From a virus, in IMG/VR virus record IMGVR_UViG_3300045988_178640: a DNA stretch of 64,000 bases; one strand, 5' to 3'. The notes below the pieces were generated by a model. It was not told where the DNA came from. It did not search any database and saw only the letters and a list, made by a program, of their open reading frames with translations. This document shows positions 9,340-61,949 of the stretch, in pieces (within the stretch, counting starts at the first letter, position 1; each line of letters begins with the position of its first letter). A program made the position numbers and the translations under genes.

Positions 9340-10106
9340 GCATGTGTAGGTTCTTTGGCGTGAACAATGATATTACTGATTGGGAATGGCATGATGACCC
9401 TCATACAGTAACTTTGCTTATACACTTGCTTGCGATGTCTGCAAAAAAAGCGACCGAGTATCACGGCAGGAAACTGAAAATCGGCCAGTTGGTTACAAGC
9501 CGTTCTGAACTTTCAAAAATGTGCGGTATTTCAGAACGATGTGTCAGGACGTGCCTGTCTCGTTTGGAAAAAAGCAAAATTGTGACCAGCGAAACGACCA
9601 GCCAAGGAACCGTTGTAACCGTTGAAAAATCTTGGCTTTACGTTATTACGAAAGAAAAAGCGACCAGCGAAACGACCAGCGAACGACCAACGAGTGACCA
9701 GCAAACGACCAGCGAAGTAGATACGATGAAAACTGAAAGGCCCATCAAAAAGTCCTCCCGCCCCTCCGAAGATTACACACCAGAATTTGAAAACTTCTGG
9801 GCGCAGTACCCACGGCATACAGCCAAGAAAAGCGCCTTTAAGGCATGGCGCGCTGTGAACCCCAAGGGCATTAACCCAACGCAAGATGAACAGGAAGCCA
9901 TTCTTCACGACATAGCCGTTCGATTGGGGCGCGGCGAGTGGCAGGAGGAACAGTACATCCCCCATGCGTCCACCTATCTGAACGGGCGCAGGTGGGAGGA
10001 TGAAGCGAAGCCGACGCACCCTGCGGAAGCGGGGAAAGGATACTACAATCCCTTCATTCAAATGGCGCTGGAAGCGGAGGAACGGGAACGAAATGAAGGA
10101 ATCTGA
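9336..10106 (+). CDS. phage replication initiator / replisome organizer (HTH N-domain + conserved phage C-terminus)
   Basis: HTH SRSELSKMCGISERCVRTCLSRLEK. C-terminal FENFWAQYPRHTAKKSAFKAW...YLNGRRWEDE (Phg_2220_C-like). Iterons lie inside the gene. Confidence 0.7.
   Translation: MSMCRFFGVNNDITDWEWHDDPHTVTLLIHLLAMSAKKATEYHGRKLKIGQLVTSRSELSKMCGISERCVRTCLSRLEKSKIVTSETTSQGTVVTVEKSWLYVITKEKATSETTSERPTSDQQTTSEVDTMKTERPIKKSSRPSEDYTPEFENFWAQYPRHTAKKSAFKAWRAVNPKGINPTQDEQEAILHDIAVRLGRGEWQEEQYIPHASTYLNGRRWEDEAKPTHPAEAGKGYYNPFIQMALEAEERERNEGI
9583..9716 (+). repeat. iteron cluster (putative phage replication origin) inside the initiator gene
   Basis: Seven copies of (A/G)(C/T)GACCA(G/A)C(G/C/A)A in two groups: GTGACCAGCGAAACGACCAGCCAA ... 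GCGACCAGCGAAACGACCAGCGAACGACCAACGAGTGACCAGCAAACGACCAGCGAA. Confidence 0.6.
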
Positions 10107-10731
10107 AATTGGGAAACTTCTGGCTCTGGTACAGGAAATCTGGCCGCAATTTCTGAATGGGCGGCACTTGAGAGACACAGCAGTCATTTGGCAACGGATT
10201 TTCGCCAACGACACATTCGGCGACGCGGAAAGTGCCGTGCTTGCTTATGCAAGCAACGACGAAAGAGGATTCCCACCGCCTATTGGAGCACTGAAAGCCT
10301 ACATCCACAAGATGCACGATGACAGCCCGAACGAGCAGGAGGCATGGCAGGTGGTACGAAAAGCGATTGGGAACAGTTCTTACCACAGTGTAGAAGAATA
10401 TGACAGACTACCGGACACCATGAAGCGTTGCGTGGCCGGTCCTCAATTCCTGCGGGACTGTGCGGACATGGATGCAGACCAGCTGGACACGGTGGTTGCC
10501 AGCCAGTTTATGAAAACCTACCGTGCGGAGAAAGCAAAGATGGCAGAAGTGCAGAAAATGCCAGTGGCCATACAGGGATTATTTGACCGTAAACCATCGC
10601 ATGCAAACCTTTCCGAACCCATTATGGCAAAACTGCCGCCGAAAAAGGAAGAAGTCACCGAAAGCGGAGTGCCATGTCCGGACGCTATCAAGGCCAAACT
10701 GCGAATGCTTTTAGGAGAAGGTGAAAAATAA
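10093..10731 (+). CDS. G39P-like helicase loader
   Basis: LLALVQEIWPQF....VIWQRIFANDTFGDAESAVLAYASN..GFPPPIGALKAYI follows the SPP1 G39P N-domain pattern. Confidence 0.55.
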   Translation: MKESEIGKLLALVQEIWPQFLNGRHLRDTAVIWQRIFANDTFGDAESAVLAYASNDERGFPPPIGALKAYIHKMHDDSPNEQEAWQVVRKAIGNSSYHSVEEYDRLPDTMKRCVAGPQFLRDCADMDADQLDTVVASQFMKTYRAEKAKMAEVQKMPVAIQGLFDRKPSHANLSEPIMAKLPPKKEEVTESGVPCPDAIKAKLRMLLGEGEK

Positions 10732-24838: not shown

Positions 24839-25180
24839 ATGAGCGAACCGGCCCTGATTGCGGTACTGAGCAGCGGCGCAGTTGCCGCCCTGATTAGCGG
24901 TATTTTTTCCATCATATCCATTCGGGTGCAGAACAGGATTCAAAAGGCGGCGCAAGCTACAAACAAGAACGCGGCCATTGCGGAAGGCGTGAAATTCCTG
25001 CTATACGACAGGATAAAGCATTTGGGGAACAGTTATATTCAGCGCGGGTATGTAACGAGCGAACAGCTGGAAGATTTAATGATGATGCACCAGGTGTACC
25101 ACGACAAAACCAAACTGAATGGGAACGGATTCCTTGATAACCTGATGGCGCAGGTACAGAATTTACCCATTCGTAACTGA
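24839..25180 (+). CDS. membrane-anchored small protein
   Basis: N-terminal TM segment ALIAVLSSGAVAALISGIFSIISI. Confidence 0.45.
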   Translation: MSEPALIAVLSSGAVAALISGIFSIISIRVQNRIQKAAQATNKNAAIAEGVKFLLYDRIKHLGNSYIQRGYVTSEQLEDLMMMHQVYHDKTKLNGNGFLDNLMAQVQNLPIRN

Positions 25181-26707: not shown

Positions 26708-26890
26708 ATGGCTAAAAAACGTGGCAGACCCGCATCAGAGAAACCGAAAATCTATCAATACCGTTTGCGGATGAGCATTGATGATTTGACGAAACTGAAC
26801 GAGTGCAGCTCTTTATCGGGAAAGCAAAAGGCGGAAGTGTTTAGAGAAGGAATGGAAATGTTCTACCAGCACTTGAAGCAAAACAGTTGA
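26708..26890 (+). CDS. ribbon-helix-helix (CopG/Arc-like) protein
   Basis: MAKKRGRP...YRLRMSIDDLTKLNE...KAEVFREGMEMFY shows the N-terminal GRP plus beta-alpha-alpha pattern shared with the other RHH paralogs. Confidence 0.7.
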   Translation: MAKKRGRPASEKPKIYQYRLRMSIDDLTKLNECSSLSGKQKAEVFREGMEMFYQHLKQNS

Positions 26891-26939
26891 CCTGTTGCAA
26901 CGCGATTATCCTGGAAAAATATGATGGAGGATAAAGCAG

Positions 26940-27175
26940 ATGAAAGAGCTTAAGGTTATAAACCAAGATGGTACTTTGGTTGTTGACAGCCGCGAAGTGG
27001 CAGAAATGGTTGGTATGCGTCATGCTGATTTACTTGAAAAAATCAGCAATTACAAGGGATTTTTAGAGAACGGAAAATTCCGTTTTCAGGATTTCTTCAT
27101 TACCTGATACCTACAAAGTAGAGGGAAAAGTATGTAAGGAACTGACAGCTTGTAATGGCACAAAATAAAATGTGA
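26940..27175 (+). pseudogene. Rha-family antirepressor remnant (N-terminal 55 codons, then stop and frameshift)
   Basis: MKELKVINQDGTLVVDSREVAEMVGMRHADLLEKI...FQDFFI aligns with the intact Rha genes. TGA at 27105. The +1 frame continues DTYKVEGKVCKELT. Confidence 0.65.
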
Positions 27176-27193
27176 CATTTTTTGCAAAACCTA

Positions 27194-27237
27194 TTGACTT
27201 TCTGTTCGACGCATAGTAATATAACGTCGAACAGAAA
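27194..27237 (+). promoter_or_regulatory. sigma70-type promoter with palindromic operator for the RHH gene
   Basis: TTGACT (27194) -17 nt- TAATAT (27217). A perfect 13-bp inverted repeat TTTCTGTTCGACG / CGTCGAACAGAAA flanks the -10. Confidence 0.65.
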
Positions 27238-27251
27238 GTGAGGTGAAAGCA

Positions 27252-27431
27252 ATGTCCCCGCGAACGGGGCGACCGAAGCTCGAAAACTCAAAGCAATGGC
27301 GAATCGGTGTCAGACTGGACGATGAAACCGTTCAGAAACTTCACAAACTGGCGGAGCTGCGGAACGAAACCATTTCCGAAGTCATCCGCAAGGCGATTGA
27401 GCGAGAGTACGAGGAAGCCCAAAAGAAATAG
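27252..27431 (+). CDS. ribbon-helix-helix (CopG/Arc-like) protein
   Basis: MSPRTGRPKLENSKQWRIGVRLDDETVQKLHKLAELRNETISEVIRKAIEREY. SD GTGAGGTG. Confidence 0.75.
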   Translation: MSPRTGRPKLENSKQWRIGVRLDDETVQKLHKLAELRNETISEVIRKAIEREYEEAQKK

Positions 27432-27500
27432 GATAACGGGCCCACGTTTTAGCAGACAAAGCCCATTACCCTATTGCACAGACCAAAGGCCAGCAAGTAA

Positions 27501-27529
27501 ATCTTACCATGCCTGCCGCCTTTGGTCAA
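27501..27529 (-). promoter_or_regulatory. antisense extended -10 promoter, homologous to the small-RNA promoters of the leftward arm
   Basis: Minus strand reads TTGACC-17 nt-TAAGAT preceded by TGn (GCATGGTAAGATTTAC). Compare GCATGTTAAGATTTAC at 61179. The transcript would run antisense into the RHH 3' end; its terminator is unclear. Confidence 0.5.
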
Positions 27530-27569
27530 GCCACAAAAGTACTTTTACAAGCAAAAGGAGAAACGAAAG

Positions 27570-27854
27570 ATGATTCCGACGTTGGAGATGCCCTCTGCCT
27601 GTGAGAGCTTCACGGTAAGCCCTGTGGAAGAAGACCGATTCTATGAACGAATCAACAATGCAATGGCGATGGCTACGGTTTTGGCACGGTACGCAGACCA
27701 GATAAGCGGCCCTGACAGCAGCGAGTTTGCCCTCATTTCCATGGTGGCAGACGGAATATCCGACACGCTGATGACGGCCATAGAAGATTATGAAAATGCG
27801 GTTGAGCGGGACGAGCCGATAACCGAAGCCAATAAGCCGACAGACGACCCTTGA
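27570..27854 (+). CDS. hypothetical acidic protein
   Basis: AAAGGAG SD; ORF. Confidence 0.5.
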   Translation: MIPTLEMPSACESFTVSPVEEDRFYERINNAMAMATVLARYADQISGPDSSEFALISMVADGISDTLMTAIEDYENAVERDEPITEANKPTDDP

Positions 27855-27878
27855 ATATACGAAATGGAGGCTGAAAAT

Positions 27879-28640
27879 TTGATTAGCGAGCTGACCATTA
27901 CCAACCACAACGGAACCCTGGTAGCCGACAGCAGAGAAGTAGCTAACATGATTGGCAAGCGGCATGACCACCTTATGAGGGACATACAGGGATATGCTGC
28001 CGCCATTGAGAAAAGTGCTGAAACCGTTGCTGTGCCTAACGCCCCCAAATTTGGGGCGGTTGATTTCTTCATTCCGAGCACCTATGTAGACCCCAAAGGT
28101 GAAACTCGTCCCTGCTACCTTCTGACGAAGCAAGGGTGCGAGATGGTTGCCAATAAGCTGACCGGCGAGAAGGGCGTACTGTTCACAGCGGCCTATGTGC
28201 AGCAGTTTAACACGATGGAAAAATTCATCAAGGGTGAAAAGCTGGATGCGGACGAAAAGTTTACGATACAGCGGATGAAAGCGGAAGCAGCGCTAAAGAA
28301 CGCCAACGCAAGGCAGGCCGCCTTGTGGGCGAAATTCAGCGACATGCTGAACACGCCGGAACACAAACAGATTTGCGCCGCGTATGGAACGCAAGTGCTG
28401 AACGGCGGACAAATGGTGCTGCCGCTGCCGCAAGTGGAAAAGACGTACAGCGCCAAAGAAGTTGGGGACATGTACGGTATCAGCGCACAGATGGTGGGCA
28501 GACTGGCGAACCAGAACGGGCTGAAAACAAGCGAGTACGGAAGTTTGCGGCTGGACAAAAGCCCGTACTGCGACAAGGAAGTAGAAACCTGGCGGTACAA
28601 CCAGAAAGGCGCGGACGCTATCGGTCGGCTGACGCAATAA
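27879..28640 (+). CDS. Rha-family phage regulatory protein (antirepressor)
   Basis: TLVADSREVANMIGKRHDHLMRDIQGY...FFIPSTYVDPKGETRPCYLLTKQGCEMVANKLTGEKG. TTG start after GGAGG. Confidence 0.8.
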   Translation: MISELTITNHNGTLVADSREVANMIGKRHDHLMRDIQGYAAAIEKSAETVAVPNAPKFGAVDFFIPSTYVDPKGETRPCYLLTKQGCEMVANKLTGEKGVLFTAAYVQQFNTMEKFIKGEKLDADEKFTIQRMKAEAALKNANARQAALWAKFSDMLNTPEHKQICAAYGTQVLNGGQMVLPLPQVEKTYSAKEVGDMYGISAQMVGRLANQNGLKTSEYGSLRLDKSPYCDKEVETWRYNQKGADAIGRLTQ

Positions 28641-51554: not shown

Positions 51555-51986
51555 TCATTCCTCCCACTTTTCGGCGGCCATCTGCTCCGGGGTAGGCTTC
51601 CGGGGCCAGCAGCGCCATTCTTTGTTGATTTCCACTGTAGATTCTTTCCTTTCCTCTTCATCCGCAACGGGGGAATGGAAATAGAAGTATGCCTTAGATC
51701 TATGGCGTGGAATAATTTGTAACGTGTAAGGAGCAAAATTGTATTCCAACCACAAAAAGTTCCAATCGTCGTCATCAACTGCTTCCCATATTTCGTCCAG
51801 CGTCAGCGGCCTCATTTCCGGCTCGGCGCGGCGCAGGGCGACGGAAAGGGCTTCTTCTGCCGTATCGCACAATGGGCTTCCCCAGCCACATTCATAGCAG
51901 AAAAAACTGAAATTCAAGTGTTCCCTGCCAAAATCAACGGCTTTCATTTCAGAGCCGCATCCGGGGCATTTCGGCGTTTCGCTCAT
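51555..51986 (-). CDS. zinc-ribbon protein (Lar-like N-terminus?)
   Basis: CPGCGSEM...FFCYECGW. Confidence 0.45.
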   Translation of the reverse strand: MSETPKCPGCGSEMKAVDFGREHLNFSFFCYECGWGSPLCDTAEEALSVALRRAEPEMRPLTLDEIWEAVDDDDWNFLWLEYNFAPYTLQIIPRHRSKAYFYFHSPVADEEERKESTVEINKEWRCWPRKPTPEQMAAEKWEE

Positions 51987-51988
51987 TT

Positions 51989-52609
51989 TCAATTCCACCC
52001 TTCCGGCTTTTCGCAACGTTCAAATTCAATTGCCCATACCCACGGGTTGGCATTCCAGCCGTATTCCGGCAAATCGTCTTTTTTGATGGTGCTGTCCCAT
52101 AATTCGGAAAAGGCTTTCGGGTACGCAGCTTTTTTCAGGTTTTCGTGATATTTTTCACTGCTTGCCTTGTAATCATCCCATATGCCTTCTGCCGCACAAT
52201 TCTCAACGGAAATTTCCCGCAGACACTCCACCCACACACGCTTTACCAGCAGAAAGATTCTGGCGGCTTCTTTCGGCATATGGATAGAAGGATACCAGCG
52301 GGCTTCCTTTGCCGCGCTGCAATCCGGATCGTCGGCTTTGTACATGTAGTGAATTCCGTTGCTGGGCCAGTTTGGATAAAGGCCACATTTGTCCGTGATA
52401 CTCCACGTCTCCCGAACCCACAGAACATCGCCAGCTTCGCAAGGAGACTTCATTCTTCTGCCATGCCCGTCATCCCAACCGAGCCAACCAATATTGTTCC
52501 ATCTTGGTTTTGTGGGCTGCGGCTTCATCAAACGACGCGTCTGCGTTTTCTTCCCTTCCAGAATGGCTTTCACCATTTCGGTGTTGAACAATATTGGCTT
52601 GCAGTTCAT
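51989..52609 (-). CDS. conserved phage early protein (ASCH-like?)
   Basis: KPILFNTEMVKAILEGKKTQTRRLMKPQP N-terminus. ATGA coupling. Confidence 0.45.
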   Translation of the reverse strand: MNCKPILFNTEMVKAILEGKKTQTRRLMKPQPTKPRWNNIGWLGWDDGHGRRMKSPCEAGDVLWVRETWSITDKCGLYPNWPSNGIHYMYKADDPDCSAAKEARWYPSIHMPKEAARIFLLVKRVWVECLREISVENCAAEGIWDDYKASSEKYHENLKKAAYPKAFSELWDSTIKKDDLPEYGWNANPWVWAIEFERCEKPEGWN

Positions 52610-54487: not shown

Positions 54488-55285
54488 TTAATGCAAGCGG
54501 CGACAGGCGTACTTATTGACAAAATACACCTGGCCTTTGCCCAGAACCTTGGGCGTTTTTGAAATGGTGACGTGGCCGTCTGCATGGGTGACGGTGGTTT
54601 CCTTGATACGCATAAGGCCAAGCTCCATACTCTTTTGGGTGGGCATGTTATAATCCGTGCCCTTACGGGAAACAAGGTAGCCGTCCTCTCGAAGTTGCTT
54701 GAACAGGCGGTTTTGGCCGATGTCCATGCCGTTCTGCTTGAGGATTTTCGCCAGTTCGCCCACAAGTATTTCGGTTTGGCTGGACGAAACGCTATCGGCA
54801 AAGAGGACTTTGGGAGCATCGGCTTCGATTTTTTCCTGCTGCCGGGCGACGGTGTGTTCAGCGGCGATACGCGCCTTGCGCTCATTCGCCCACTTAACAG
54901 CCAGTTTGGCGAAGGTTTCCGGGTCGTTAAACAGGGCTTCGGCAGCGGAGTCTGTAAGGTATGCGCCGTGCTTGCGGATAGACGGCAGCACCTCATCGAA
55001 CACCCAGGACTCGAACCGTTCCGCGTCTGGCAACTGGCTGTGCGCTATCAGACGGTACAAATCGCCTTCCGAAATAAAGCGAGCTTCTTGTTTTCTGCCA
55101 AGGCTATCTTCGATGGGGTGGTAAATTGCCACCCCACGGCAATGCTGTTTGAGAGCGTTTACTGAATCCTTATACCCTAAAGATGTGGTGACATCTTTCC
55201 CGCAGAACAGCGGTTCTCCGTCTTTTACGATGACGCGCACATTGCCGAACTTGGGATTGGAGAATACCTTGATAGCGTTTTCCAT
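54488..55285 (-). CDS. Bro-N / KilAC antirepressor (intact paralog)
   Basis: FGNVRVIVKDGEPLFCGKDVTTSLGY...HC...GDLYRLIAHSQLPDAERFESWVFDEVLP, plus the C-terminal KilAC part ...MPTQKSMELGLMRIKE...GKGQVYFVNKY. Confidence 0.85.
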   Translation of the reverse strand: MENAIKVFSNPKFGNVRVIVKDGEPLFCGKDVTTSLGYKDSVNALKQHCRGVAIYHPIEDSLGRKQEARFISEGDLYRLIAHSQLPDAERFESWVFDEVLPSIRKHGAYLTDSAAEALFNDPETFAKLAVKWANERKARIAAEHTVARQQEKIEADAPKVLFADSVSSSQTEILVGELAKILKQNGMDIGQNRLFKQLREDGYLVSRKGTDYNMPTQKSMELGLMRIKETTVTHADGHVTISKTPKVLGKGQVYFVNKYACRRLH

Positions 55286-55348
55286 AACAACATCCTTCCT
55301 GATTTTTGTTTACAATTCAATACGTTATTGGGTATGGCAAAGCCCGGC

Positions 55349-56293
55349 TTACGCGTTGGCGATACGGTTGAAGATACGATTGGCCTTATCAAACAAAGCG
55401 GAGTAATCGCGGGCGATATAACGGTTGGTGACGGAAGCGCCGGTTCCATCGGAATGCATGAGGAACAGAGATACCTCGCCATCGTTAAAGCCACGCTTGC
55501 GAAGGAGAGAAGCCGCCGTGTGGCGCAGGGCGTGTGTGCGAACCCCGGCATGGCCGGAGAAACCCCTGGCCGCCGCCTCCACCAGATTGCTCATGGCGTT
55601 GCGGGCGAAGGGAAGCCAGAAACCGGACTTGTCAACAAAGCCGAACAGGGGGGCCGAACCAGTGCAGGAAGCGGGGCGAAAGCCGCTATGCAGATAGTCA
55701 GCAATAGCGGCTTTTGCCACATCGGAGAACAGAACAGTGCCGTTTTTTCCCCCCTTGGCGTTGCGAACGCGGATGGTTCCCTGTTCCCAATCCAGATCAT
55801 CCGGGGTGATGGCGCAGAGGGAGGAACAGCGCATACCGGAGGTGATGAACAGAGTGAGGATAGCCCGGTTGCGGGCGTAGGACTTTTTGTGCATGAAGGA
55901 TGGGGACTGGTTGGTGAGAACCATGCGAAACTCCTTTTCCGAAAGGATGTTACGGGAGGTGTCCTTGCAATCCGATTCCTTTACGGCGACGGACATAAGG
56001 CTTTTTTTGAAGGGAGAACGGGTAATAAACTCAATATCTGCACAAAATTCAAAGAAAGTATGCAGATGATTGACGTAAAGGCGCAGAGAGGAAGGAGCGA
56101 CCTTTTGCGACATGGCGTCCTTCCAGGCGACCAGGGAAGCGGGGGTAATATCCTGCACCTGCTGGACGCCGTTTTCGGCGAGAAAATCGCCGAAGAAGCG
56201 AAGGGTACGCTGACAATTCTGGATGGTGGTTTCCGCCTTATTGGCGGAGATGAGGGTGTGAATATAAGATTCAACCGCTTTGGTGTAGTACAT
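55349..56293 (-). CDS. int: tyrosine recombinase / integrase (XerC/D-like size)
   Basis: SAM-like N-domain. Catalytic box SGMRCSSLCAI, HALRHTAASLL, and a terminal ...VTNRYI Tyr. Confidence 0.9.
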   Translation of the reverse strand: MYYTKAVESYIHTLISANKAETTIQNCQRTLRFFGDFLAENGVQQVQDITPASLVAWKDAMSQKVAPSSLRLYVNHLHTFFEFCADIEFITRSPFKKSLMSVAVKESDCKDTSRNILSEKEFRMVLTNQSPSFMHKKSYARNRAILTLFITSGMRCSSLCAITPDDLDWEQGTIRVRNAKGGKNGTVLFSDVAKAAIADYLHSGFRPASCTGSAPLFGFVDKSGFWLPFARNAMSNLVEAAARGFSGHAGVRTHALRHTAASLLRKRGFNDGEVSLFLMHSDGTGASVTNRYIARDYSALFDKANRIFNRIANA

Positions 56294-56354
56294 TTTTACG
56301 ATAACCTCCTTCTATCCTTTGACACTCGGGAGACATTTATGTTAGAATAAAAAA

Positions 56355-56459
56355 TGCTTTCCTGAATGCCTGGGTGGTTCCTGCGTTTGGGTGAGCTTTG
56401 TGATTCCCACCCGTGCGGCGTGTCTTGGCGGAGATGACGCGCGGGTGGGAACTTTTAGG
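56355..56459 (+). ncRNA. predicted small RNA convergent with the RHH gene, between RHH and int
   Basis: Promoter TTGACA (56319) -18 nt- TGtTAGAAT (56340-56348). Terminator TTCCCACCCG...CGGGTGGGAA + CTTTT ends 4 nt before the RHH stop. Confidence 0.45.
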
Positions 56460-56463
56460 TTGG

Positions 56464-56661
56464 TTACGGGTGACAGCAGCGGTTATATTCCGCCTGAATG
56501 AGGGAAGCGAGAATATCCGTTTTGGGGCGGCCCGTGGCTTTGTGGATGGATTCCAGCTGGCGAACGGTGGTTGGGGTCGCGCGGCTGGAAAGCATGCGGC
56601 TTTTCGCTTCGCTGCCGGTGACAGGTCTGCCGACGGGCTGTGGGATGGAAGCCTTTTTCGT
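56464..56661 (-). CDS. ribbon-helix-helix protein with no canonical start codon (ACG after a strong SD?)
   Basis: ..PVGRPVTGSEAKSRMLSSRATPTTVRQLESIHKATGRPKTDILASLIQAEY aligns with the RHH paralogs. An in-frame TAA lies 2 codons upstream of the ACG at 56661. The first ATG (56595) is downstream of the conserved GRP. Confidence 0.45.
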   Translation of the reverse strand, partial: TKKASIPQPVGRPVTGSEAKSRMLSSRATPTTVRQLESIHKATGRPKTDILASLIQAEYNRCCHP

Positions 56662-56718
56662 TTTTTACACCTCCGTTTACAATTCAGCAACAAGGCTAAC
56701 TGCTGTTTACATTTATGA

Positions 56719-56747
56719 ATTGTAATACATAATTGTGGTCATGTCAA
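56719..56747 (-). promoter_or_regulatory. consensus sigma70 promoter for the RHH-int-Bro transcript
   Basis: Minus strand reads TTGACA-17 nt-TACAAT. Confidence 0.65.
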
Positions 56748-56803
56748 TGCATTTTTCAAAAAAGTATTGAAAAGTAAACAAACGACCACGATTATGAACA
56801 CTG

Positions 56804-57403
56804 TCACCCCTCCTGAACGACCTGTACATGGGCGCAGCTGACCTCCATAGTGGTGCGGGAAACGTGGGTGCCATCCGGAAGGGTTTTGGTATAATCCCGG
56901 CTTTGCATACGGCCAACGATGCTGACGGGAGTTCCACGGTCAAGCTGGCTGGCCAGATTGGCATAGCGGCCCCATGCGATGGCGGGAATGGTGGAGCAAT
57001 TGAACTCCCGATTGACGCGGAGGATAAAATCGCTGATCTGTCGGTTAAAGGGCGTGGAGCGGAATGTGGGAACGGTTTGCAGCGTGCCGGTGAGCCGAAC
57101 GGTATTGGGGCACTGGCCCGGGTCGTTTTCCGGGAAGTCGTGGACGAAACCGAACAGACGAACGTGGGGAAAATCCTGCGCGTGATAAGTGCGAAGATCG
57201 CCGGTGGCGGTGACCAGATCTCCCTGAGAAAGAGGGTGACGCTTGAGCACATTGCCGGGGATGACAAGGGTAACAAGGTCCTGCGCCCCGCTGAGGCGTG
57301 GCACGGAAAGGACGGTTTTGTAGAAAGTGCGATTGGGAAGACGATGGCTGACGGTGACGGGGTCCACAACGGTTCCGCGGAAATAGAAGGTATTGGTATC
57401 CAT
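56804..57403 (-). CDS. OB-fold SSB-like protein (possibly two OB halves, no acidic tail)
   Basis: C-terminal half NTVRLTGTL...GTPVSIVGRMQSRDYTKTLPDGTHVSRTTMEVS resembles the SSB core GRLQSRSY...G......EV. Confidence 0.5.
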   Translation of the reverse strand: MDTNTFYFRGTVVDPVTVSHRLPNRTFYKTVLSVPRLSGAQDLVTLVIPGNVLKRHPLSQGDLVTATGDLRTYHAQDFPHVRLFGFVHDFPENDPGQCPNTVRLTGTLQTVPTFRSTPFNRQISDFILRVNREFNCSTIPAIAWGRYANLASQLDRGTPVSIVGRMQSRDYTKTLPDGTHVSRTTMEVSCAHVQVVQEG

Positions 57404-57456
57404 GATTGAATCCCTCCTGAACGGGTGAAGTATGGGTGGTTCCTGCGGTAAGCGGG

Positions 57457-57708
57457 TTACTGATGGTGGTATTCGTCCATGAAGAAGGACAGGGTTTCGG
57501 CCAGGTCGTTATCCAGATGTTCACGTTTGCAATAGATGGCATAGGCTTCGCTGAAGCATTGGAGGGCGGAACTCATCTTTGCGTAAGCGTCGCAGATGAG
57601 AACCATAGAGTCGGACATGGTGGCCTCAACGGGTGCTTTTGCCAGGAAGGAAGGAATTTCTTTGCGGGAGCTATTGGTGGCGGAAGCGGTGTTAGCAGTG
57701 TTCATCAT
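57457..57708 (-). CDS. hypothetical small protein
   Basis: ORF only. Confidence 0.4.
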   Translation of the reverse strand: MMNTANTASATNSSRKEIPSFLAKAPVEATMSDSMVLICDAYAKMSSALQCFSEAYAIYCKREHLDNDLAETLSFFMDEYHHQ

Positions 57709-57786
57709 GATATTGAATCTCCTTACATTTTGATTTTTGGTTGGGGTGAGGATGCGGGCATACAGTCTTTAGGCCGGGCGTGCGAC

Positions 57787-58578
57787 CTACAGGAGAGGAT
57801 GGCAATAGCGGTTGAGGAAGAAAACCTGTCCCTTGCCGGTGACCATGGGGACGAAATAGGTTTGCTGGGCCCTGGGGCCGCAGGAGCAGACCCGTTCGCT
57901 GACGCGCATGAGACCCTGGGCCATGCTGCGCTAGCTGGGCATATTACGGGACTGGCCGGTTTTAAGCAGCCAACCATCGTTACGGAGCGTTTCAAACAGA
58001 CGGGCGCGGCCAATATCCAGACCGTTTTGATGCATGAGCTTTGCCAGATCGCCAACGGGAATATCGTTAGGGGCGGCGGCCACGTCATCGGCGAACTTGA
58101 CCTTGTGAGCGTCCCGCTGAACCTGCGCTTGCAGCCGTTCCTTTTCCACCTGATTCTCAATACGGAGGGAACGTTCGCTATTCCACTCAGTAAAGAGCTT
58201 GGTGACGAACTGGGGAGAGGTAAAGAGCCTGTCCAGCGCCTCGGGTGACAGATACATGCCGTTATCCACCACCTGCACGGCCACATCGTCAAACAGCCAG
58301 TGGTTGAACTCCTGCGCGGCGGGAAGGTGGGACTGGGAGATGAGACGGAGAACATCGCCCTTGGGGATGACAGAAACCTGCAAAGTCTTGCTGGGGCTTT
58401 GGGGATGAGGTAGGTGGTGTTTCACCACCCACTGGCAATGTTGCTTGATAGCGTTTACGGTATCTGAATAACCAAGAGCTTTTGCTACGTCTTTGGCGAC
58501 GTAGTACCACTCTCCGTCTACAAGTACCTTGCGAACCTGACCGAACTTCGGGTTTTCCATGATGGTAATATCGTTCAT
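57787..58578 (-). pseudogene. Bro-N / KilAC antirepressor paralog interrupted by one in-frame TAG (57931-57933)
   Basis: Reads ...RNMPS-TAG-RSMAQGLMRVSE...TGKGQVFFLNRY, against the paralog ...YNMPTQKSMELGLMRIKE...LGKGQVYFVNKY. The TAG aligns with Gln (CAG). Confidence 0.6.
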
Positions 58579-59969: not shown

Positions 59970-60770
59970 TCACACAACGGCTTCCACCAGCTCTACGCCG
60001 TAGTGGATGCACATTTCGCGGACGATTTGCACATAGGCTTCCACAGCCCGCTTATCGGAAGCAATTACGTCCAGATAGTTGAGCTTCTTTACCTCGGTAG
60101 CGGAGGAACCGTTGAGCATGAGGCGGGCGCGGCGATTGCTGAGGCGGCGCTTTACGTCGAAACCGAAGCGTTCCTTCATGAGGCGGTAAATATCCCGCTG
60201 AACGTCCACGATGTACTGATTGCCGCCCATGACCTGAGCGATTTTGACAATGGCGTCGTGGGTGGACTTGCGCCAGCCGTTGGGGTTGATGGCGATGGTA
60301 TTGCCGATGGATTCCACCTTGCGGGTAACGTCGTCCAGTTTAAGGGACTGTTCCTGCTGTCGGGTTTCCATTTCGCGGAGAGCGCGGACGGTGGCTTCCA
60401 GAATATCCAGGCTGGACTGGGGCTTTTGCAGTTTCTTTTCCATTTCGTCAAACTGGGTGACGTAGGCCGCTGTAAACAGCACGCCCTTTTCGCCGGTCAT
60501 CTTGTTTGCCACCATGTCGCAGCCCTTTCGGGTGAGAAGGTAACAAGGACGGGGTTTCCCCTGTTCATCGGAATAGGTGCTTTCGATGAAGAAATTGGCC
60601 AGTCCAAATTTGGACTCGCTAGGCGTATCAAGGGTTTCAGCGTTCTTTTCCAAAATTTGAGAGTAACCTTGAATATCCCGCAGAAGATGCTTATGCTCTT
60701 TACTCAGCATCCGGGCGACCTCGCGACTATCCACGACCAATTTTCCGTTTTGATTGACGATACTAAGCAA
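59970..60770 (-). CDS. Rha-family phage regulatory protein (antirepressor)
   Basis: KLVVDSREVARMLSKEHKHLLRDIQGY...FFIESTYSDEQGKPRPCYLLTRKGCDMVANKMTGEKG. TTG start, AAGGAG SD. Confidence 0.85.
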   Translation of the reverse strand: MLSIVNQNGKLVVDSREVARMLSKEHKHLLRDIQGYSQILEKNAETLDTPSESKFGLANFFIESTYSDEQGKPRPCYLLTRKGCDMVANKMTGEKGVLFTAAYVTQFDEMEKKLQKPQSSLDILEATVRALREMETRQQEQSLKLDDVTRKVESIGNTIAINPNGWRKSTHDAIVKIAQVMGGNQYIVDVQRDIYRLMKERFGFDVKRRLSNRRARLMLNGSSATEVKKLNYLDVIASDKRAVEAYVQIVREMCIHYGVELVEAVV

Positions 60771-60840
60771 TATATTTCACTCCTTGCTGGTCGATGAGTT
60801 AAGGGTTGACCGAAGGAGAAAAGCATGTTAGAATTTGCTG

Positions 60841-60915
60841 GTCTCCAGCGGTTGTTGGGGCGCTGGGTTTGCCGCAATCTTGCGAGGATGGGTCGGCAAA
60901 CCCTCTTTATTTTTT
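60841..60915 (+). ncRNA. predicted small RNA 1 (between the RHH gene and Rha, convergent with RHH)
   Basis: Promoter TTGACC (60806) -17 nt- TGtTAGAAT (60826-60834). 5' hairpin GCTGG-TCT-CCAGC. Terminator GGGTTTGCCG...CGGCAAACCC + TCTTTATTTTTT overlaps the RHH stop. Confidence 0.5.
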
Positions 60916-61080
60916 CAGGCTTTCGTAAACGACCCGTATTCCTTTTCGGATAACATCGGCCTTTGTCATGCCGGTTATCTTGCAACACTCTTCCAGCATG
61001 CGCACATCTTCATCGGACATGCGGATGCGGGTTTCGTGCTTTTTGGGGTCGGAAGTCGGCCTTCCGGTTTTTGGCGACAT
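60907..61080 (-). CDS. ribbon-helix-helix (CopG/Arc-like) protein
   Basis: MSPKTGRPTSDPKKHETRIRMSDEDVRMLEECCKITGMTKADVIRKGIRVVYESL. Confidence 0.75.
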   Translation of the reverse strand: MSPKTGRPTSDPKKHETRIRMSDEDVRMLEECCKITGMTKADVIRKGIRVVYESLKK

Positions 61081-61098
61081 GCTTTTCACCTCTCTTTT

Positions 61099-61142
61099 GT
61101 GTCACCATAATTACATTATACATACGGTGACACATAAGTCAA
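61099..61142 (-). promoter_or_regulatory. TTGACT promoter with operator palindrome for RHH 60907
   Basis: Minus strand reads TTGACT-16 nt-TATAAT. The inverted repeat GTGTCACC / GGTGACAC flanks the -10. Confidence 0.6.
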
Positions 61143-61196
61143 TCCCTTTTGTGAAATTTTGTTGACCCAAGGAGGATTGCATGTTAAGATTTACAA

Positions 61197-61286
61197 GCCC
61201 CCTTCGGGTGGGTGGCCCCGCTGGATGCTGGAATTGTGAGAGATTGCAAGCATCGGCGGGGATTTCCCTATTCGCCTATTTCTTCC
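61197..61286 (+). ncRNA. predicted small RNA 2
   Basis: Promoter TTGACC (61162) -17 nt- TGtTAAGAT (61182-61190). 13-bp bulged hairpin CCCCGCTGGATGCT...AGCATCGGCGGGG, then a T-rich tail overlapping the stop of RHH 61268. Confidence 0.4.
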
Positions 61287-61444
61287 TTGACCTTGCGTCG
61301 GAACCAATCGGTTCTGGTCTCTCCGCGCTCCTTTAAGCGCTTGTCGAGCTTTTCAACCTTTTCAGGTTCTACCATGAACACGATTTGTTTCAGTTTCTTT
61401 CGGCGGTCGCGGAAGTATTCGGCACGGCTTTTGCCGTCAGCCAC
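61268..61444 (-). CDS. ribbon-helix-helix protein (different subtype, no GRP motif)
   Basis: GTG start 7 nt after AAAGGAGG. KQIVFMVEPEKVEKLDKRLKERGETRTDWFRRKVKEEI fits the beta-alpha-alpha pattern. Confidence 0.6.
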   Translation of the reverse strand: MADGKSRAEYFRDRRKKLKQIVFMVEPEKVEKLDKRLKERGETRTDWFRRKVKEEIGE

Positions 61445-61612
61445 ATTCAATCCTCCTTTCGTTGTAGCTAGATACAGCATAATATGTAGCTAACTACAAG
61501 TCAAGCCCTTTTGTGATTTTTCCTGAAAAAAGTGTACAAAAAACCTCCCTTCAAACAATACGAACAAATGTTCCGTCTTGCCCAAAGGGAGTGGCGTGCT
61601 TATAATAAACAT

Positions 61613-61686
61613 GCAGCATCCCTTTGGGCTGTTGTGGTGGGAACAGTAAGACTAGTTTGGCGACCGGCTTACTGTTCTTTTTTTGC
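61613..61686 (+). ncRNA. predicted small RNA 3
   Basis: Promoter TTGCCC (61578) -17 nt- TATAAT (61601). Terminator GAACAGTAAG...CTTACTGTTC + TTTTTTT; its 3' arm encodes the last codons of RHH 61669. Confidence 0.5.
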
Positions 61687-61896
61687 GTCTGTTTCTTTTT
61701 CCAGAAGGGATTGATAGACGCGGTCAATTCCTTCTTTGATAACCTGCGTTTTGGACCAGCCCGTCTTTTTCATGCAGAAGTTTACTTTTTCCTCTTCTTT
61801 TTCGGAAAGACGGAAGCCGATTCTGGAACGCTTTGGGTCATTCGTAGGTCTACCGGTGCGTACCGTTTGCCTCACCTCCTTATCGGGTACGCACAC
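61669..61896 (-). CDS. ribbon-helix-helix (CopG/Arc-like) protein
   Basis: ..RTGRPTNDPKRSRIGFRLSEKEEEKVNFCMKKTGWSKTQVIKEGIDRVYQSL. Start uncertain: the ORF-track GTG at 61896 lies only a few nt below the -10, and an ACG at 61866 sits 8 nt after AAGGAGG. Confidence 0.65.
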   Translation of the reverse strand: MCVPDKEVRQTVRTGRPTNDPKRSRIGFRLSEKEEEKVNFCMKKTGWSKTQVIKEGIDRVYQSLLEKETDAKKEQ

Positions 61897-61949
61897 AGTA
61901 TATATTACGTTTGTACAAAAGTCAAGCGGTTTTGAAAAAAATCGAGCAA

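Follow-up and report, generated by a model that had tools for sequence, protein, structure and literature searches.

Tandem cassettes of a ribbon-helix-helix gene and a predicted convergent small RNA ahead of phage antirepressor genes

This study was concerned with a 64,000-nucleotide stretch of viral DNA (IMG/VR virus record IMGVR_UViG_3300045988_178640), called the window throughout, and with an array at its positions 60806-61945. The array holds three minus-strand units of ~360 bp, each made of a promoter, flanking operator half-sites and a small gene for a protein of the ribbon-helix-helix (RHH) type. Each RHH unit is faced by a near-consensus plus-strand promoter, from which an RNA of ~75 nucleotides (nt) with a hairpin at the RHH stop codon is predicted, and the last unit (unit 1) runs into the gene of a Rha antirepressor. 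We read the unit, with moderate confidence, as a self-contained cassette with two layers of control, in which autorepression by the RHH protein and an attenuation or translational block driven by the countertranscript would keep the antirepressor off. A preliminary description of this DNA had compared its logic with P22 immI (RHH autorepressor first, convergent antisense RNA, antirepressor after) and had treated the arrangement as a peculiarity of one phage. The comparative data support the immI-like logic and show a widespread family instead of a single case: the cassette is found in many prophages of gut Clostridia, streptococci and C. difficile.

The protein collection contains 334 clusters homologous to RHH1, the protein of unit 1, most of them from gut metagenomes. 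A sample of 160 related loci was used, comprising 80 genome loci (Oscillospiraceae, Lachnospiraceae, Ruminococcus, Faecalibacterium, Blautia and others) and 80 IMG/VR loci; where single loci are named, they carry L numbers. Conservation of the promoter and terminator elements in related phages, on which the preliminary description had made its proposal depend, was found in 140 of 148 non-redundant cassettes, with at least 9 of 12 consensus positions matched in the convergent promoter. A strict detector, which called an element only where promoter, flanking repeat and terminator occurred together, identified at least one complete element opposite the RHH gene in 147/160 loci, compared with 31/160 on the control strand, and gave a median predicted RNA length of 75 nt. 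The covariance search proposed earlier was carried out with a model built from 28 elements (R1), which gave 79 matches with E <= 0.01 across 81 loci, none of them on the RHH-gene strand. The 18-nt core of the small-RNA (sRNA) promoter, TGGTATAATAGATTTACC, had 33 matches in IMG/VR, of which 31 had a U tract and ~29 had a convergent RHH open reading frame (ORF) ending 70-91 nt downstream, including three of the type of RHH2, the protein of unit 2. The link between RHH gene and RNA holds in both search directions.

Two copies lie in deposited phage genomes. In C. difficile phage phiCD211 (L207, NC_029048 24695-26067) a divergent regulator is followed by an RHH "transcriptional repressor," a 122-nt gap with the element and an "anti-repressor." The S. 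pyogenes NZ131 prophage Javan527 (L208, MK448795 9833-10197) holds a textbook copy, scored at 36.9 bits (E 2.5e-5) by a second covariance model (R2), which was made without the window sequences and without base pairs for the terminator hairpin. The element lies at 24,872-24,993 (minus strand) in phiCD211, whose host is C. difficile DSM 1296, and at ~9,990-10,115 in Javan527, facing gene 0055 from the other strand; it is unannotated in both deposited sequences. The cassette is also present in prophages of S. agalactiae, S. dysgalactiae, S. suis and S. mitis/oralis, in pneumococcal satellite phages and in Fusobacterium phage Funu2. No Rfam 15 family matched the element, either in the window at E values up to 10 or in eight further loci, and no description of the cassette or its RNA element was found in the searchable literature. 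The S. pyogenes sRNA surveys (PMC3542284, PMC4829319) held no entry that could be mapped to the cassette, and the SF370 prophages were not among the cassette matches in the phage collection. A GenBank phage nucleotide search with the window region gave matches confined to the N-terminal domain of Rha.

In the window, a promoter scan found all six promoters of the array at the positions claimed for them earlier, each with 9-11 of 12 consensus matches; promoter-like sites numbered 8 per 3 kb, compared with 2.7 +/- 1.7 in shuffles. In unit 1, the RHH1 promoter (61099..61142, minus strand) is TTGACT-16-TATAAT (61142-61115), and its -10 is flanked by the inverted operator GTGTCACC (61099-61106)/GGTGACAC (61126-61133). 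The RHH1 gene (60907..61080, minus strand) encodes 57 amino acids (aa) from an ATG at 61080 (MSPKTGRPT...HETRIRM...) and matches PHROG 876, "transcriptional repressor" (2e-16). Opposite lies the predicted sRNA1 gene (60806..60915, plus strand), with the promoter TTGACC-17-TAGAAT including a TG (60806-60834), a predicted start at ~60841, a 5' tail UCUCCAGCGGU at 60842-60852 and a terminator hairpin (U1, 60865-60903), after which TCTTTATTTTTT overlaps the RHH1 stop codon. On the minus strand, an arm complementary to the Shine-Dalgarno (SD) sequence (anti-SD arm, the complement of 60809-60819, within 60778..60819) is predicted to pair either with the Rha SD, AAGGAGTG (60778-60785), or with the arm covered by sRNA1. 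The Rha-family antirepressor (59970..60770, minus strand; 266 aa, TTG start) follows and matches Pfam Phage_pRha (1e-27) and PHROG 373, "anti-repressor" (1.7e-52).

In unit 2, the RHH2 promoter (61463..61504, minus strand) is TTGACT-17-TATGCT (61504-61476), and the half-site TAGCTACA occurs at 61463-61470 and 61485-61492, on either side of the -10. The RHH2 gene (61268..61444, minus strand; 58 aa, GTG start at 61444) belongs to another RHH subfamily, PHROG 3896, homologues of which head single cassettes in L187, L191 and L199. The predicted sRNA2 gene (61162..61290, plus strand) has the promoter TTGACC-17-TAAGAT with a TG (61162-61190), a predicted start at ~61197 and a hairpin (U2) at 61216-61261; the native arm pairing of unit 2 is -16.8 kcal/mol. 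In unit 3, the RHH3 promoter (61897..61925, minus strand) consists of a -35 TTGACT (61925-61920), a 17-nt spacer and a -10 TATACT (61902-61897). A perfect 8-bp inverted repeat, GTGCGTAC/GTACGCAC (61887-61894 and 61856-61863), lies around the SD as a putative operator or 5' RNA hairpin, and the pair does not recur within the window. The RHH3 gene (61669..61875, minus strand) matches PHROG 876 (5.5e-12); its frame is open up to 61896 and its start codon is uncertain. The predicted sRNA3 gene (61578..61686, plus strand) has the promoter TTGCCC-17-TATAAT (61578-61606), a predicted start at ~61613, a 5' tail arm A2 (61619-61629) that pairs with arm A1 (61580-61590), and a terminator hairpin (U3, 61639-61679) followed by U7, with the RHH3 stop within the 3' arm of the hairpin. 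In the RHH-strand RNA after this unit there is a candidate attenuator (61538..61591, minus strand), in which the anti-SD arm CUCCCUUUGGGC would pair with the SD-like GAAGGGAG ahead of U6 (61543-61538). It competes with the hairpin formed by A2' and A1', the arms as they stand on the mRNA, and the element is kept in L209.

The preliminary description was right about the clean inverted repeat at RHH1 and wrong in calling the repeats of RHH2 and RHH3 loose, given the two copies of TAGCTACA and the perfect GTGCGTAC/GTACGCAC. It had also placed plus-strand hairpins with a U tract over each RHH stop, and folding agreed for U1 and U3. The combination of promoter, flanking inverted repeat and terminator occurs at only four sites in the whole window, three of which (U1, U3 and 27529 on the minus strand) are at RHH 3' ends. 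U1 and U3 show the full family architecture, with a convergent promoter ~75-130 nt from the RHH stop, an inverted repeat across the -10 and a terminator placed at the stop codon; in unit 2 the promoter, the repeat and the hairpin are present and the U tract is weak.

Across the family the element reads TTGACA-17-TG(G)TATAAT-AGATTTA, after which come a stretch that varies, a linker rich in G and U (UUGGUG-like) and a long hairpin, with a U tract at the RHH stop. The terminator hairpin was evaluated in three ways. First, it folds at -18.4 kcal/mol on the sRNA strand and at -12.9 on the other (133/140, p 4e-23). Secondly, native arms pair at -20.7 kcal/mol compared with -8.8 for non-native partners, and 113 of the 119 native pairs ranked top. 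Third, wobble-type mismatches number 103 on the sRNA strand and 11 on the other. These values point to a real RNA structure that is selected on the strand of the sRNA itself. The apex motif YUU[GU]G occurs in 43/119 terminators (15.7 expected) and its complement in 18 (1.8 expected), which would suit a first contact between loops. Model R2, run on the whole window with filters off, scored U3 at 24.0 bits (E 0.012), the sRNA of a second module described below at 21.7 bits (E 0.035) and U1 at 15.2 bits (E 0.7), so that predicted elements made up three of its top four window matches. The window RNAs appear to be divergent members of the family. A weak match to the family model was also seen at 51901-51994 on the minus strand (15.6 bits, E 0.58), with the loop motif UUUUGGCAGGG and a U tract, on the early-gene strand near a gene boundary.

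The second structure of the element is an inverted repeat that brackets the sRNA -10, with arm A1 running from the -35 to the -10 and arm A2 beginning at ~+1. These arms vary by locus and stay complementary, native pairs having -19.9 compared with -9.9 kcal/mol (104/120). In 79 model-aligned sequences the covariation score of the repeat was 0.428, compared with 0.156 +/- 0.012 when shuffled and 0.12-0.25 with slid partners; 15 of 16 pairs change on both sides, and the MAFFT-only subset agrees. MAFFT with RNAalifold gave no structure for all 115 elements because the arm lengths differ, and mix-and-match energies and covariance-model alignments were used in its place. Since A1 is upstream of the sRNA start and so outside the sRNA, a hairpin of A1 and A2 is possible only on the RHH-strand RNA. 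The order on that mRNA is terminator complement, linker, A2' (SD-like), loop, A1' (anti-SD), -35 complement, SD of the next gene, spacer and start codon. In non-overlapping segments, A1' pairs with its own downstream start region at -10.2 kcal/mol, whereas foreign arms reach -7.5 (p 5e-9); its pairing with the RHH start region of the same locus is weaker (-8.0 kcal/mol, p 8e-7). TTTT is found in the spacer between SD and start in 42/75 downstream genes (56%), compared with 2/75 RHH genes and 35/516 (6.8%) other SD-bearing genes of the same loci. Pairing of A1' with the SD, followed by these U residues, would make an intrinsic terminator sited at the start codon.

The junctions in the window were folded with and without the arm that the sRNA covers. 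At the unit-3 junction, leaving out the arm covered by sRNA3 gave a long hairpin (61591-61544) followed by GUUUUUUG (-25.1 kcal/mol, z -3.2), and with the arm present an 11-bp A2':A1' hairpin formed instead. Mutually exclusive antiterminator and terminator hairpins, with an sRNA complementary to the 5' arm of the antiterminator, are therefore seen in silico at this junction. At the unit-1 junction, with the covered arm left out, the anti-SD arm pairs with the Rha SD instead; a U run is missing here, which would leave SD occlusion only. For the Rha start region, blocking the part covered by sRNA1 lowers the predicted accessibility from 0.47 to 0.32. In the ensemble model start-site accessibility falls from 0.42 to 0.28 with the covered part blocked, and it does so in 68/75 cassettes. 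The pattern fits countertranscript-driven attenuation or SD occlusion, a switch that the preliminary description had missed. Its claim of an RNA antisense to the intercistronic mRNA holds insofar as the RNA is complementary to the RHH 3' untranslated region (UTR); the ribosome-binding site of the next gene is not covered, and the -35 of the sRNA promoter abuts that SD. For this reason the sRNA probably acts through a structural switch or attenuator.

The RHH proteins and their operators form the other layer. Pfam and NCBIfam gave only sub-threshold RHH-type matches to the window proteins (DUF6290, MobC_2, NikA-like, RelB, VapB), and their relatives bear precomputed RHH_1 or RepB-RCR_reg matches. 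The family profile aligned in register with CopG at a probability of 54%. An AlphaFold (AF2) monomer had helices at 23-36 and 40-56, as expected, and an N-terminus that is unstructured in the monomer; Foldseek with this monomer model and a PDB sequence search gave no informative match. An RHH fold is probable for these small proteins. The RHH promoter has the same order throughout the family, TTGACTTTTG, half-site, -10, half-site, AAAAG and SD, with direct and inverted arrangements of the half-sites about equally common. In the window the half-sites flank the -10 for RHH1 and RHH2, and the RHH3 repeat brackets the SD. The half-site changes with the predicted beta-strand of the protein. For example, HETRIRM-type proteins have GTGTCACC as their operator half-site family-wide, L(S/N)TRIRL goes with GTGGATAC, TEIKIRAT with GTGTGAAC and NRESFRLS with GTCATAAC. 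Cassette pairs with at least 7/8 identical predicted beta-strand residues share the half-site in 78% of cases, compared with 6.4% of pairs with at most 3 identical residues. Each operator pair in the window is confined to its own promoter, and no further targets of the RHH2 and RHH3 operators, or of the operator of RHH5 in the second module, were found elsewhere in the window. The three RHH proteins thus look like private autoregulators and not like a chain.

The first genes downstream of the cassettes (n=90) included 10 Rha, 9 ORF6N, 4 Bro-N and 3 AntA, so that 26/90 carry antirepressor domains, and these domains are enriched among downstream genes. The others are small proteins unmatched in Pfam and PHROG, and the 90 included neither a toxin nor a Rep initiator. 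This composition bears on the alternative that the cassette is a type II toxin-antitoxin or plasmid-type copy-control module, with the RHH protein as antitoxin or Cop, and not a module of phage immunity. The weak matches to DUF6290, RelB, VapB and, in family members, RepB-RCR_reg would agree with such a module, as would a layout the same as that of pMV158 copG-RNAII-repB (PMC4485353). We regard it as highly improbable, however, with antirepressor domains or small proteins in all 90 downstream positions and with every context a prophage or phage contig. In a separate observation, proteins of 65-150 aa that follow the cassette in L015, L016, L017, L151, L158, L161, L187 and L191 share a C-terminal motif, ~F.FG..KG.R.EKA, and are candidates for new small regulators or antirepressors.

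The two layers would work together in four steps. First, a sigma-70-type promoter between two 8-bp half-sites would drive a 57-60-aa RHH protein that shuts off its own promoter; the position of the operator and the covariation of protein and operator suggest this autorepression. Secondly, transcription that escapes repression would read on into the next gene (a Rha, ORF6N, Bro-N or AntA antirepressor or a small protein), and no other promoter fits before that gene because the sRNA -35 abuts its SD. Third, the strong convergent promoter would produce a ~75-nt RNA, fully complementary to the RHH 3' UTR, with a ~20-nt single-stranded 5' tail (A2), the G/U-rich linker and the terminator hairpin. 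The structure of this gene can be read directly from the DNA, and its transcript is predicted. Lastly, A2' on the mRNA would pair with the anti-SD A1' beneath the sRNA promoter, and an sRNA that takes A2' would release A1' for pairing with the SD of the next gene. More than half of the cassettes, and the unit-3 junction too, have a U run after that SD, and the result would be a terminator before the start codon with the SD hidden; covariation, U-run enrichment and folding all argue for this step. The units of an array would each remain autonomous. As every unit has its own promoter and private operator, upstream units are not needed to "feed" Rha, as had been proposed.

Several points weigh against this two-layer reading. 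First, the sRNA promoters and terminators are consensus matches and the transcripts are predictions. Secondly, the window elements score only marginally with R2 (E 0.012 for U3 and 0.7 for U1), and U2 is not detected. The U2 hairpin ends 6 nt ahead of the RHH2 stop and has no real U tract, unlike the overlap described earlier; U2 may be a degenerate or weak terminator, and its RNA may not terminate. Third, the RHH assignment draws on weak profile matches, the CopG alignment and helix prediction. The three small RHH ORFs of the preliminary description all exist, but RHH3 has CAA where the family starts, with no ATG, GTG or TTG there; the only possible starts are two GTG codons, 61875 directly beside the SD and 61896 directly beside the -10, and the gene was left uncalled on the source contig. 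Fourth, only ~29% of the first downstream genes are recognisable antirepressors, and the others are without recognised function. Fifth, the promoter-spanning repeat folds equally well on both strands, with a weak strand bias of wobble-type mismatches in the A1/A2 arms (107 on the mRNA strand compared with 77, p 0.03), and may have a role at the DNA level. Lastly, accessibility fell by nearly as much with grafted foreign start regions (-0.12) as with native ones (-0.14); the accessibility test thus shows feasibility and not specificity.

The fifth point would be expected if the repeat were a DNA operator for a protein controlling sRNA synthesis and not an RNA structure. Its centre on -10/+1 and its mostly Watson-Crick pairing would also suit an operator. 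Nevertheless, we consider this very unlikely. The arms, 10-19 bp in length, contain bulges and are almost wholly different between loci whose RHH proteins are ~80% identical and have invariant DNA-reading residues, and no cognate variable protein is encoded nearby. The wobble-type mismatches lean to the mRNA strand, and the repeat forms a three-part set with the downstream SD and the U run. The last point would agree with an sRNA that works chiefly through convergent transcription or through cleavage of the duplex by RNase III, insulating or uncoupling the RHH gene from the downstream operon with no hairpin switch. The near-consensus sRNA promoters do point head-on at RHH promoters ~330 bp away, and the RNA is perfectly complementary to ~75 nt of the 3' UTR. 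This explanation seems to us unlikely, since it does not account for three observations: the covariation of A1, which is outside the sRNA, with A2 in 104/120 cassettes; a U run after the downstream SD that is eight times commoner than in other genes; and the better match of the anti-SD arm to its own start region than to foreign ones.

Arrays are a recurrent form of the cassette. Two to five RHH1-family genes with a period of 355-390 bp were found in 24/160 loci, and the strict detector found at least two RNA elements in 44/160 loci (27%), at least three in 16 and a maximum of six. L027 has five RHH genes, and its five-cassette array (1536-2500) begins ~30 bp past the host rsmI gene, which is the very end of the prophage. 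Internal junctions of arrays retain the first codons or the SD of a former downstream gene, such as MQLPQTVEISS* in L013 and MERNA* in L032. The locus L209 (961-3890), which adjoins an integrase gene and a divergent HTH_26 repressor, is a mosaic relative of the window array. Unit 3 is retained there with a terminator stem that differs but is compensated, and with an antiterminator/terminator set identical to that of the window; the middle RHH gene of L209 is of another type, and its RHH1 (96% identical) is without a promoter or sRNA of its own and is followed by another cassette. The junction remnants and the mosaicism of L209 suggest that arrays arise by recombination at conserved promoter blocks, and arrays have thus apparently been built and reshuffled at these blocks and at the 5' end of the downstream gene.

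Such a history also allows the reading that units 2 and 3 are decaying leftovers of recombination and that only unit 1 regulates Rha. RHH3 without a canonical start codon and uncalled as a gene, an RNA in unit 2 that lacks a U tract and fails the family model, the remnants of former downstream genes at junctions and the parts swapped or deleted in L209 are all what decay would leave. We find it doubtful that both units are leftovers. The RHH3 subfamily comprises 12 clusters, none with a canonical start at the family position, and all keep the odd N-terminus together with the conserved C-terminus. All six promoters of the array are retained at 9-11/12 consensus, the unit-3 antiterminator/terminator set is intact and identical in L209, and 27% of loci have arrays of intact cassettes, the largest with five or six units. 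If the units of an array are functional two-layer cassettes, they might serve as heterotypic immunity cassettes, the repressor of each unit (with its private operator code) and the matched antisense RNA silencing the antirepressor or early operon of another type of phage. This is a speculative proposal that we hold to be rather improbable. If true, a prophage with an array would be protected from cross-induction or takeover by several competitors at once, and new specificities would be gained by swapping cassettes at promoter blocks, giving an RNA-plus-protein "immunity library" for conflict between phages.

A second module, also missed by the preliminary description, lies at 26708..28640 on the plus strand. 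It comprises RHH4 (26708-26890), a 5' remnant of a Rha gene (26940-27107) that encodes a 55-aa N-terminal stub, RHH5 (27252-27431) with the operator GTTCGACG/CGTCGAAC at 27204/27225, a predicted convergent sRNA (27531-27422, minus strand), a 94-aa ORF (27570-27854) and Rha2 (27879-28640). The module lies within the block of tail genes, shortly upstream of those for the tail tube (YomU_Tube), YomN and the tape measure, a position reminiscent of the late-operon "ant moron" of P22. The operon downstream of Rha (54488-58578, minus strand) encodes two Bro-N/ANT antirepressor-like proteins, a single-stranded DNA-binding protein (SSB) and a tyrosine recombinase. With Rha, Rha2 and these two Bro-N/ANT proteins the phage has at least four antirepressor-type genes.

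Some further features of the loci were noted or rejected. The 15-16 nt upstream of the sRNA -10 duplicate the RHH SD-spacer-start of their own unit with one mismatch each (60814-60828 and 61077-61091; 61169-61184 and 61443-61458). A long-range pairing between the RHH start region and the copy upstream of the sRNA -10 was striking in units 1 and 2 and was rejected in the family test (p 0.11, median rank 0.59). Small plus-strand ORFs (MLEF..., MLRF...) were rejected as a real product, as the ATG is missing in most family members, which have TGGTATAATAGATTT there instead; L011, retrieved by the small-ORF pattern, was an unrelated chance match. In L014, a prophage of an Oscillospiraceae metagenome-assembled genome, a skipping-rope RNA (Rfam RF02924; 4861-4957, plus strand; 52.3 bits, above the gathering score) lies ~2 kb downstream of the RHH cassette.

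Antirepressors decide when a prophage awakens, and gut Clostridia and streptococci are rich in prophages. If the two-layer reading is true, the cassette adds an sRNA family that is widespread, previously unannotated and without an Rfam entry, and a repressor-operator "code" that can be read for a large RHH family and from which immunity groups could be predicted by sequence. It would also be a phage example of plasmid-style dual control, in which a Cop-like repressor is joined to countertranscript attenuation, and would make the idea that arrays encode multi-phage immunity testable. Experiments are feasible because tractable hosts carry the cassette, in the NZ131 prophage of S. pyogenes and in phiCD211 of C. 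difficile.

The cassette was compared with four known systems. In P22, sar is reportedly an antisense RNA of ~70 nt that is transcribed convergently from the arc-ant intercistronic region. The antirepressor operon of P22 starts with the gene of the small RHH repressor Arc, which represses its own promoter, and the region can be a late-operon moron (PMC2629481). The window array is similar in that a small RHH repressor with a predicted operator at its own promoter comes first in an antirepressor operon, Rha following unit 1, and in that a small convergent antisense RNA is predicted from the region between repressor and antirepressor. However, the predicted RNA of the cassette does not reach the ribosome-binding site: the -35 of its promoter adjoins the SD complement or overlaps it, and the transcript would start ~30-60 nt from the SD and run in the opposite direction. 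It also differs in being coupled to a covarying antiterminator/terminator set, and the cassettes are modular, operator-diversified and often tandem, with no divergent Mnt-like second repressor seen. Alignment with Arc gave an hhalign probability of 0.7%, and the RNA element of the cassette had no Rfam match. In the immI regions of P1 and P7, the c4 antisense RNA is processed from the same transcript as icd-ant, which it controls by acting on upstream target sites. The predicted RNA of the cassette would likewise hold off antirepressor synthesis, but the c4 system is not known to involve an RHH protein or a convergent promoter.

The plasmid systems resemble the cassette in the remaining features. 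In pT181 (RNAI/II) the antisense RNA is said to pair with the 5' arm of an antiterminator, so that the freed 3' arm forms a terminator just upstream of the start codon, and in pIP501 attenuation by the antisense RNAIII is reportedly combined with the protein repressor CopR. The same three-element geometry with a U run is predicted here in silico. It differs in that the 3' arm of the terminator is the SD itself and in that the transcript also encodes the repressor, an RHH protein, at an upstream position; the system is carried by a phage and multiplied. In pMV158, the RHH protein CopG and RNAII control repB, and RNAII is built of a 5' tail that is single-stranded, a single terminator hairpin and a U stretch (PMC4485353). 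The cassette likewise has a putative RHH autorepressor co-transcribed with its target and a predicted countertranscript made of a tail, a single hairpin and a U tract, along with a weak in-register similarity to CopG and precomputed RepB-RCR_reg matches in some family members. However, its target is an antirepressor or early phage gene and not a Rep initiator, its replicon is a phage and not a plasmid, and its sRNA promoter abuts the SD, whereas RNAII overlaps and blocks the repB start region. By sequence the cassette is not a member of the immI, pMV158 or pT181/pIP501 families, with which it would share a working logic, and it looks like an undescribed relative of P22 immI and of plasmid copy-control switches.

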